From an uncultured Gammaproteobacteria bacterium (GTDB lineage: Bacteria > Patescibacteriota > Patescibacteriia > S139-126), in contig CAZBLW010000002.1 of NCBI GenBank assembly GCA_964493305.1, forward strand, positions 76,677-140,676: a DNA stretch of 64,000 nucleotides. The letters run 5' to 3'. Of this stretch, positions 54,092 to 54,551 are shown piece by piece. The position numbers and the translations under genes are program-made. Under the pieces are notes generated by a model. It saw only the letters and a program-made list of their open reading frames with translations. It did not search any database and was not told where the DNA came from. The stretch's first letter is position 1. Each line of letters opens with the position of its first letter.

Positions 54092-54119
54092 TTGACAATT
54101 TAAAGGTGTTCGTTATAAT
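54092..54119 (+). promoter_or_regulatory. Consensus sigma70 promoter (TTGACA-16-TATAAT) firing rightward into an ORF-poor, GC-rich region
   Basis: Exact TTGACA and TATAAT hexamers. The -35 element overlaps, on the opposite strand, the TTGTCA -35 of a leaderless promoter for the 53560 gene. Confidence 0.55.
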
Positions 54120-54349
54120 TAAATAAATTAAATATTATTTAGTGTGCTGCGGTAAAAATATTTTTACCAGAGCACATTAACAAACCGCATACTGATAAAG
54201 ACCTGCGGTTTTTTGTTATTTTGCCCTTCTAATACTGTTGTCATCTAGACACTAGTATTAGGAGGGCACAGGTAGACAAACTACCGCAAGCACTTAGAGT
54301 TGGTCGACTAAGCTGTTAGCACTCCTCATAAAAATTAACGTGTAAATTT

Positions 54350-54511
54350 ATGTACACAGCAATTAGAGGAGCTCTAACTTTAGCTTTGACTATTCTGGTG
54401 CTCCAGATATTTATGCCCGAAGTGGCTAGTGGACTGATCGCTCTAGTAGCGAGAATGCTAGAAATCGCTTTGGCGATTTTATCGCAGGTCCCAACCGCTT
54501 TGGCGCAATAA
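54350..54511 (+). CDS. Possible small hydrophobic peptide (53 aa) inside the structured RNA locus
   Basis: ATG...TAA ORF encoding MYTAIRGALTLALTILVLQIFMPEVASGLIALVARMLEIALAILSQVPTALAQ. It has no obvious Shine-Dalgarno. It stops 8 nt before the terminator. Confidence 0.25.
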   Translation: MYTAIRGALTLALTILVLQIFMPEVASGLIALVARMLEIALAILSQVPTALAQ

Positions 54512-54518
54512 TAAATTT

Positions 54519-54551
54519 AAGCTTCTGACAACGTTCAGAAGCTTATTTTTT
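54519..54551. terminator. Strong bidirectional rho-independent terminator
   Basis: agcttctga caacg ttcagaagct stem followed by TTTTTTT. It also lies at the 3' end of the convergent SMR gene. Confidence 0.65.

Follow-up and report, generated by a model that had tools for sequence, protein, structure and literature searches.

A predicted cis-acting leader RNA preceding a conserved small membrane protein gene of Patescibacteria

A short transcription unit at positions 54092-54553 of a 64,000-nucleotide (nt) stretch of contig CAZBLW010000002.1, referred to below as the window, combines a long structured leader with a small open reading frame (sORF) for a hydrophobic protein of 53 amino acids (aa). 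Comparison with related loci suggests, with a probability of roughly 0.6, that the leader acts in cis to limit translation of this conserved membrane protein, and that in one group of relatives, the Paceibacter-like clade, expression would also depend on transcriptional read-through. The locus can be described with some confidence as a single monocistronic gene, in which a consensus promoter would give rise to an mRNA of ~425 nt. What is new here is a small-protein family without a Pfam or NCBIfam entry together with a leader without an Rfam entry; a cis-acting structured 5' leader on the mRNA of a small hydrophobic peptide is of a known kind.

In bacteria of the candidate phyla radiation (CPR), genomes are tiny, recognised regulators are few and hardly any regulatory RNAs have been catalogued. 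Here the locus offers a conserved small membrane protein which annotation calls hypothetical or misses, as well as a covariation-supported leader RNA outside Rfam. Because the host makes little use of Shine-Dalgarno (SD) sequences, it also shows how start-site accessibility might be controlled in such an organism, and it provides a defined target in the form of an RNA of ~170 nt and one hexamer pair.

The 53-aa protein and its family

A previous reading of the window made from its sequence only had described the locus as noncoding while noting a possible ATG-initiated ORF of 53 codons, hydrophobic and lacking an SD sequence. The ORF was found as described, and the statement that no ORF of 60 aa or more is present holds for the + strand from promoter to terminator. 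The label "noncoding", on the other hand, has to be given up. Ten distinct ORF sequences were collected from homolog contigs and from scans of genome and metagenome collections, and their variable sites are distributed over codon positions 1, 2 and 3 as 22, 10 and 41. Pairwise ratios of nonsynonymous to synonymous change (dN/dS; Nei-Gojobori) are 0.06-0.33, with dS reaching ~1 for distant pairs, while the other two frames give pN/pS values of ~1 or above 1.5. The selection acts on the whole peptide, including a C-terminal QVPT..LAQ/LPQ motif. On these comparisons, the sORF is a real protein-coding gene under purifying selection. A later start after GAGGAG, at a TTG in codon 13, was considered and rejected, given that this codon is CTA in the related locus L007 and that the N-terminal M-[YF]-x-A-[IL]-R-G is kept as protein through synonymous changes (relatives carry L numbers where they have to be told apart).

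A word-indexed search returned five homologs of 52-53 aa with 67-96% identity. A HMMER profile run against 1.84 billion cluster representatives extended these to 21 clusters at 50% identity, 17 of them with lengths of 47-60 aa, and a second profile search gave 39 clusters at 90% identity; lengths across the family are mostly 47-66 aa. The only names found in the 39 clusters are "hypothetical protein" of the Patescibacteria group, the Parcubacteria group and Candidatus Buchananbacteria, and one close relative of the locus is titled Candidatus Paceibacter sp. The family consensus can be written M-[YF]-x-A-[IL]-R-G-a-L-t-L-A-..-VL-k-.-F-L-P-E-V-a..L.....DQ....LPQ. The window peptide is hydrophobic and carries no net charge, and its AlphaFold model consists of two helices (residues 2-21 and 23-51) with a predicted local distance difference test (pLDDT) score of 89.9. 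Neither Pfam-A nor NCBIfam contains a match to the window peptide, and none was consistent among 22 family members. Moreover, a profile search of PDB recovered designed helical repeat proteins only, and Foldseek gave 0 matches in PDB. The sequences thus appear to define an uncharacterised family of two-helix membrane proteins; wherever names are given, they point to Patescibacteria/Parcubacteria only.

A further observation concerns the RNA within the coding region. The hairpin AAAUCGC-UUUG-GCGAUUU (54462-54479, + strand) encodes I-A-L-A-I. In L006, L007, L013 and L014, synonymous changes on both arms (AUC..GCG to AUA..GCU) preserve its pairing. This hints at an RNA-level constraint inside the ORF.

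The core leader, the upstream module and the transcription unit

The core leader (54218-54385) consists of ~130 nt and the first 36 nt of the ORF, and forms four predicted helices, P1 to P4 (Table 1). P1 is a near-perfect duplex of 16-25 bp with a variable apical part. The strands of P4 include an anti-SD-like CUCCUC, located 23-28 nt 5' of the AUG, and its partner GAGGAG in codons 6-7; the loop that they enclose contains the AUG at 54350, a start hairpin of 5 bp (54340-44 with 54353-57) and an AU-rich region. When 14 loci were folded as single sequences, P1-P3 were obtained in 14/14 and P4 in all except L019.

The sequence-only reading had proposed that conservation and covariation be looked for in relatives, and the structure was found to covary above both shuffled and slid controls. 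In a MAFFT alignment of 9 sequences from the Paceibacter-like clade, 93.5% of the cells in the core are paired, and 18 pairs have changed on both sides, compared with 7.0 ± 1.7 in shuffled alignments (0/500) and 2-6 in slid ones. A core alignment of 12 sequences fitted to the model has 90.3% of its cells paired and double changes at 28/46 pairs, against 14.6 ± 2.3 (0/500) and 8-10 in the respective controls. For P1 itself (alignment A8), 9/16 pairs have changed on both sides with 92.6% of cells paired, and the sequence at its base is kept in the distant loci L016-L020. A covariance model built from the 9 clade sequences also matched the expected site in distant homologs which share only 38-47% peptide identity, with scores of 37 bits in L016 (E 7e-8), 31 in L018, 30.5 in L020 and 18 in L017. 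A second model from 11 sequences scored 45 bits (E 5e-8) on held-out L017 and 24 bits on held-out L019.

Additional evidence comes from P4, whose cognate CUCCUC:GAGGAG duplexes are more stable than non-cognate combinations (-13.9 vs -10.9 kcal/mol, p = 0.001). In L017 the GGAG tract is shifted 3 nt deeper into the ORF and its pairing with the upstream strand is retained. Judged from these sequences, P4 co-evolves, and the core leader as a whole is a conserved RNA structure with covariation that is not in Rfam. A search of the window and of the flanks of 13 other loci revealed no second copy of the motif; it occurs solely before this one small-protein family.

Known RNA classes do not account for the locus. 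None of the 4227 families of Rfam 15 matched it at the gathering score, the only hits in the window being three tRNAs, and at E <= 10 the region 53900-54750 gave chance-level matches only, the best being sau-19 with 25.7 bits against a gathering score of 80, over the terminator hairpin only. ARAGORN found no tmRNA. The earlier failure to recognise signatures of RNase P, tmRNA, signal recognition particle RNA or 6S RNA is therefore borne out. In the literature searched, no described leader motif of CPR bacteria or Parcubacteria was found. Several additional elements within the leader were tried and rejected. A pseudoknot of the P3 loop with a CCAAC candidate in the ORF is without covariation. 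An upstream ORF translated from AGGAGGG would have no start codon within 12 nt in the window, and the changes in P2 and P3 are compensatory, not codon-like; a TTG-started upstream frame of 21 codons in L016 is not conserved.

Table 1. Predicted features of the transcription unit and its divergent promoter (positions in the window)
Feature	Position	Strand	Details
sORF-unit promoter, TTGACA-16-TATAAT	54092-54119	+	-35 at 54092-54097, -10 at 54114-54119; 12/12 consensus positions
Module A hairpin 1	54141-54178	+	Lower stem AGUGUGCU/AGCACAUU, upper stem GGUAAAAA/UUUUUACC
Module A hairpin 2, intrinsic-terminator-like	54179-54214	+	A-tract AACAAA, stem AACCGCA/UGCGGUU, 13-nt loop, U6
P1, long hairpin	54222-54268	+	Base CCCUUCU (anti-SD-like) paired with AGGAGGG (SD-like)
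P2, GGUAG/CUACC	54271-54285	+	Compensatory changes at 5/5 pairs; 96.5% of cells paired
P3, CUUAG/CUAAG	54293-54312	+	Loop with conserved U-N-G-U-C
P4 and clamped start loop	54315-54378	+	GUUAG+CUCCUC+UAA (54315-54331) with UUA+GAGGAG+CUAAC (54363-54378)
sORF, 53 aa, MYTAIRGALTLALTILVLQIFMPEVASGLIALVARMLEIALAILSQVPTALAQ	54350-54511	+	ATG start, 53 codons, two predicted helices
Intrinsic terminator of the unit	54518-54553	+	11-bp stem 54518-54545, then T8
Divergent leaderless promoter, TTGTCA-17-TATAAT	54063-54098	-	Drives the 167-aa membrane-protein gene

In the Paceibacter-like clade, a further structured element, module A (54141-54214), lies upstream of the core. It is made up of hairpin 1, the linker CAUUAACAAA, and a terminator hairpin with its U-run. 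The linker provides an A-tract which matches the U-tract, and the stem of hairpin 2 extends over 54183-54210, with ACCGCA (54184-89) paired to TGCGGT (54204-09) and the T-run reaching 54214. Module A folds with z values of -5 to -8.6 in 6 relatives, and in alignment A9 90.8% of its cells are paired, as opposed to 30-49% when slid; few double changes are present. In L015, hairpin 1 is kept with a different sequence and hairpin 2 has changed from CCGCA/UGCGG to CCGCG/CGCGG. The module, with its terminator conserved, is found in 9/9 clade sequences. It is absent from the five distant homolog loci examined; there the core leader is retained, with the promoter directly before P1.

The stem followed by a U-run had been taken for an attenuator. 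The terminator part of this suggestion stands, together with its A-tract, in the 9 clade sequences; the regulatory part is not supported, as no conserved antiterminator was seen in a reading of alignments A3 and A9 and the element is missing from the five distant loci. In the window, a UGCGG in hairpin 1 could pair with the 5' arm of the terminator, but the bases differ in L006, L007 and L008 and the pairing is lost. The terminator loop is long (11-17 nt) and variable. Only 7 nt separate the U-run from P1 in the window and no promoter-like site is found there, therefore the sORF must be transcribed by read-through. A short RNA of ~85-90 nt is probably also released in this clade. Pairing of module A with the core was tested and rejected, since the only complementarity that its linker shows to the core, 8 nt long (CACAUUAA with UUAAUGUG), is disrupted in 3/9 sequences (those of the window, L010 and L005), judging by a reading of alignment A3. 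Two further sequence relationships were noted between module A and P2. The 3' arm and U-tract of the module A terminator (54204-54216) are 85% complementary to the loop and 3' arm of P2 (54276-54288), and ACAAAC..CCGCA occurs twice, on the 5' side of the hairpin 2 terminator and at P2.

The promoter of the unit matches the consensus exactly, as had been claimed, and in an alignment of the whole unit TTGACAATT and the -10 element are invariant or nearly so among 9 relatives; transcription would start at ~54126. The perfect terminator reported at the end of the unit was likewise recovered and is kept in relatives, L008 and L015 having a different GC-rich stem at the same place, and the alignment shows conservation of the unit from promoter to terminator. 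For the 427-nt transcript, the predicted folding energy is -161.4 kcal/mol, with z = -10.4 relative to dinucleotide shuffles, in agreement with the several long perfect stems seen before. The opposite strand is almost as strong (z = -9.8), which is expected because the hairpins are perfect. The description of the locus as GC-rich goes too far, with a GC content put at 0.40-0.43 versus ~0.35, or at 0.35-0.43 across the locus against ~0.30-0.39 around it, and a richer region, up to ~0.52, at 54900-56200. The locus is single-copy in the 64 kb of the window, and in the clade the sORF keeps its place next to the 167-aa gene and RecG, with tRNA-Arg between these two in the window, across dS ~1. A candidate internal promoter before the AUG or before P1 (TCGACT-17-CATAAA, 8/12) was discarded, being present in the window only and lost in L003 and L007, with the scanner silent there. 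Consensus scans for an antisense promoter gave chance-level sites whose positions differ between relatives.

At its 3' end, the unit shares its terminator (54518-54553) with a convergent EamA-family gene on the - strand, and the scan reports it on both strands. The stop codon of the EamA-family gene (54543-54545) falls within the terminator stem.

Start-site access and alternative explanations

How the leader might influence translation depends on the way in which this genome initiates. An SD-like 4-mer at -16..-5 precedes the first ATG in 3/38 long ORFs of the window, compared with a background of 4.5%. Many starts in the window instead have a TATAAT 5-9 nt upstream (e.g., 54063-54098 and 54864-54900, both on the - strand), which suggests leaderless mRNAs at these starts. 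From the window sequence, the genome appears to initiate mostly without SD sequences. Therefore the lack of an SD upstream of the sORF ATG at 54350, correctly remarked upon in the sequence-only reading, is nothing unusual here, and initiation should depend mainly on how accessible the start site is. Opening the region -20..+14 around the sORF AUG costs 5.3 kcal/mol, and 34/43 other genes cost the same or more. Opening -28..+22 costs 17.8 kcal/mol, a value equalled or exceeded by 5/43 other genes. The AUG thus lies in an open 37-nt loop which is clamped by P4.

Based on this geometry, P4 would hold the start codon inside an AU-rich and otherwise open loop of 37 nt and would need to melt before the 30S subunit could be accommodated at the start site, thereby limiting initiation. 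The opening of P4 would be biased by P1-P3 or by an alternative pairing that competes for the P3 3' arm. In the Paceibacter-like clade, where module A is placed between promoter and core, the sORF would be carried by read-through transcripts only. The internal terminator would be leaky or regulated, and P4 may be switched.

Several points weigh against this proposal. P4 could present rather than hide the AUG, because the immediate surroundings of the start (-20..+14) open more easily than those of most genes, and P4 is weak in L018 and L019. As regards the covariation, the 12-sequence alignment was fitted to the model and hence favours structure, and the shuffle controls overstate significance because the sequences represent few independent lineages. 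Composition also accounts in part for strong structure where an Ala/Leu-rich ORF lies in an AT-rich genome.

A more far-reaching version, put forward here only as a tentative possibility, is that the leader represents an undescribed class specific to Parcubacteria/Paceibacteria, a conformational switch that would gate translation of the 53-aa protein in response to a signal in SD-poor organisms. Two exclusive arrangements come into question, P3 versus an extended P4, or AGGAGGG paired with either of two near-identical CU-rich strands. For the former, the 3' arm of P3 has an alternative partner, UUUAG (54379-54383), in the ORF, which would extend P4 to ~19 bp, and both pairings of the arm survive the changes in L008 and L015. 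For the latter, every sequence could form an AGGAGGG:CUCCUC duplex, with energies between -9 and -15.6 kcal/mol; its co-variation is marginal (p = 0.05), and CUCCUC in the distant loci is a near copy of the P1 5' strand. The energy needed to force this duplex is 15-25 kcal/mol for the clade as well as L016/L017, and ~7 kcal/mol for L018-L020. Were the idea of a switch wrong, what remains would be a small-protein family that is new and whose mRNA fold is conserved, a useful annotation without surprise.

Among the closest known parallels are type I toxin mRNAs. Self-inhibiting folds are found in those of hok/sok and tisB/istR-1, among others. In aapA/IsoA from Helicobacter pylori and timP/TimR from enterobacteria, too, mRNA folding blocks translation of the toxin (PMC6733600, PMC13000454). 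Such mRNAs share with the present unit a short gene for a hydrophobic peptide, flanked by a promoter and a terminator of its own, a long structured 5' untranslated region, CU-rich anti-SD-like strands (also elements in the ORF) that pair with the ribosome-binding region, and plausible alternative helices. A type I toxin-antitoxin-like system, as the sequence-only reading had ventured, is nevertheless considered unlikely. Here the peptide would be a membrane toxin, the folded leader would hold its mRNA in an inert state, the short module A RNA or an undetected antisense RNA would serve as antitoxin, and processing, for instance by RNase III on P1, would activate the message. A hydrophobic peptide below 60 aa in a monocistronic unit with a strong promoter and terminator fits this description, as do the highly structured mRNA with its anti-SD-like clamp over the start, the near-perfect P1 duplex, and the small RNA (sRNA)-like build of module A, with hairpin, single-stranded linker and terminator. 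Promoter scans and a reading of the alignments, however, revealed no antisense or trans-acting antitoxin: antisense promoter hits stay at chance level and differ between relatives, in three clade sequences the linker of module A does not keep its complementarity to the core, and the distant loci examined keep the core leader without module A. In contrast to the toxin mRNAs, the CU-rich strand here pairs with an SD-like tract located 3' of the AUG rather than with a functional SD upstream, and in a genome that hardly uses SD sequences these tracts may not involve the ribosome at all. The locus is also single-copy, vertically conserved and syntenic with the 167-aa gene, RecG and, in the window, tRNA-Arg, which agrees better with a core gene than with a toxin-antitoxin module. 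In scans of a viral-contig collection the locus was not found, and a phage origin was rejected on the same negative scans. Finally, purifying selection covers the whole peptide with its C-terminal motif, the termini are conserved, and to our knowledge most type I toxins are unlike a two-helix peptide without net charge.

Translational riboswitches and other start-occluding leaders resemble the proposed element in their covariation-supported multi-helix leader, an expression platform-like helix over the start region, and candidate exclusive pairings. A metabolite- or ion-sensing riboswitch is regarded as improbable. In this reading P1-P3 would form the aptamer, and a ligand would shift P3 (or AGGAGGG:CUCCUC) against the extended P4 and so gate the start site; the small membrane protein itself might act in transport or stress. 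Covariation across divergent Parcubacteria, conserved unpaired nucleotides, notably U-N-G-U-C in the P3 loop, the maintenance of both partners of the P3 3' arm in L008 and L015, and the AGGAGGG:CUCCUC duplex available in all sequences speak in its favour. Against these stand the absence of an Rfam 15 match and the association of the motif with one gene family of unknown function, so that nothing points to a ligand. The minimum-energy fold moreover has no common helix that would close an aptamer, conserved sequence lies mostly in stems rather than junctions, P1 is long with a variable apical part, and the 15-25 kcal/mol needed to force the alternative duplex in the clade and in L016/L017 exceed what ligand binding usually supplies. 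Attenuators provide a further comparison, since module A combines a stem, a U-tract and a matching A-tract between promoter and coding region; in contrast to them, neither a conserved antiterminator nor an anti-antiterminator was found, the terminator loop is long and variable, and the module is limited to one clade, whereas the gene and the core leader are far more widespread. In overall shape, module A is like a Rho-independent sRNA. It is accordingly conceivable, with little probability, that two genes are present, with module A (54126-54214) an independent trans-acting sRNA and the sORF mRNA a separate unit downstream. Its complete A-tract/hairpin/U6 terminator, the distant homologs that have a promoter directly before P1 and no module A, and insertions of 40-60 nt before P1 in L005 and L015 with weak promoter-like sites (9/12) are in line with this arrangement. 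These sites are within chance expectation, though, the 7-nt gap in the window contains none, the only promoter there lies upstream of module A, and neither complementarity to a target nor a second copy was found. The unit likewise recalls dual-function or peptide-encoding sRNAs (surveyed in PMC5521070), which are short and highly structured, have their own promoter and terminator, and contain a small ORF; here, by contrast, there is no evidence of a base-pairing target, and coding sequence and cis structure explain the conserved features. A purely noncoding structured RNA, whether housekeeping or novel, with an accidental ORF deserves almost no credence. The strong fold across the whole unit including the ORF and the in-ORF hairpin kept by paired synonymous changes would suit it, but the frame-specific synonymous excess is a signature of coding and excludes it; in addition, a profile still picks up members of the protein family at 38-47% identity, their length being conserved, and neither Rfam nor ARAGORN gave a match.

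Neighbouring genes and relatives

Upstream of the sORF unit, a second promoter faces away from it on the - strand (54098 to 54070), and by sequence reading and consensus scan its -35 element overlaps that of the sORF promoter. The sequence-only reading had described exactly this divergent, leaderless arrangement. The neighbouring gene is given in the ORF list as 53560-54090 (- strand), starting at a TTG at 54090 and encoding 176 aa. Its homologs have 167 aa, and this length together with the position of the promoter places the true start at the ATG at 54063; the mRNA would be leaderless because the -10 element ends 6 nt before this ATG. Its product, a membrane protein, matches DUF7649/DUF5673 weakly and below threshold. 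A tRNA-Arg (GCG) gene occupies 53408-53482 (- strand), between RecG and the 167-aa gene. Compared by its protein-coding genes, the order RecG, 167-aa gene, sORF holds throughout the clade. A functional link of the sORF to its neighbours was rejected, as conservation of the 167-aa gene does not reach beyond the clade and L016-L020 have unrelated neighbours.

On the other side, GC content rises to 0.42-0.52, compared with ~0.35, over 54900-56250 and onward to ~59200. This region encodes a 375-aa zinc-ribbon protein as well as proteins of 247 and 746 aa without a family match. At the same position, relatives contain a serine recombinase and helix-turn-helix repressors (L003), PRTase/ClpB (L005) or a glycosyltransferase (L006). 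From its composition and gene content, the segment 54900-~59200 looks like a variable island or insertion site.

Two of the distant loci have a sequence in common that is absent from the window. The exact 18-mer TAAGATATATTGTGCGAC occurs at 673-690 in L017 and at 47-64 in L018, inside a hairpin with a stem of the GUCGC/GCGAC type, 75-200 nt upstream of the sORF promoter.

Lastly, the same sORF, at 94-96% identity, was found on contigs of two metagenome-assembled genomes titled "uncultured Gammaproteobacteria", L009 (CAZUKA010000002.1) and L010 (CAZINS010000005.1). The gene order of L009, which is the contig of L003, is as in the window and in Candidatus Paceibacter DYGA01000001.1. Going by these sequences, the label "Gammaproteobacteria" of L009 and L010 is probably wrong.

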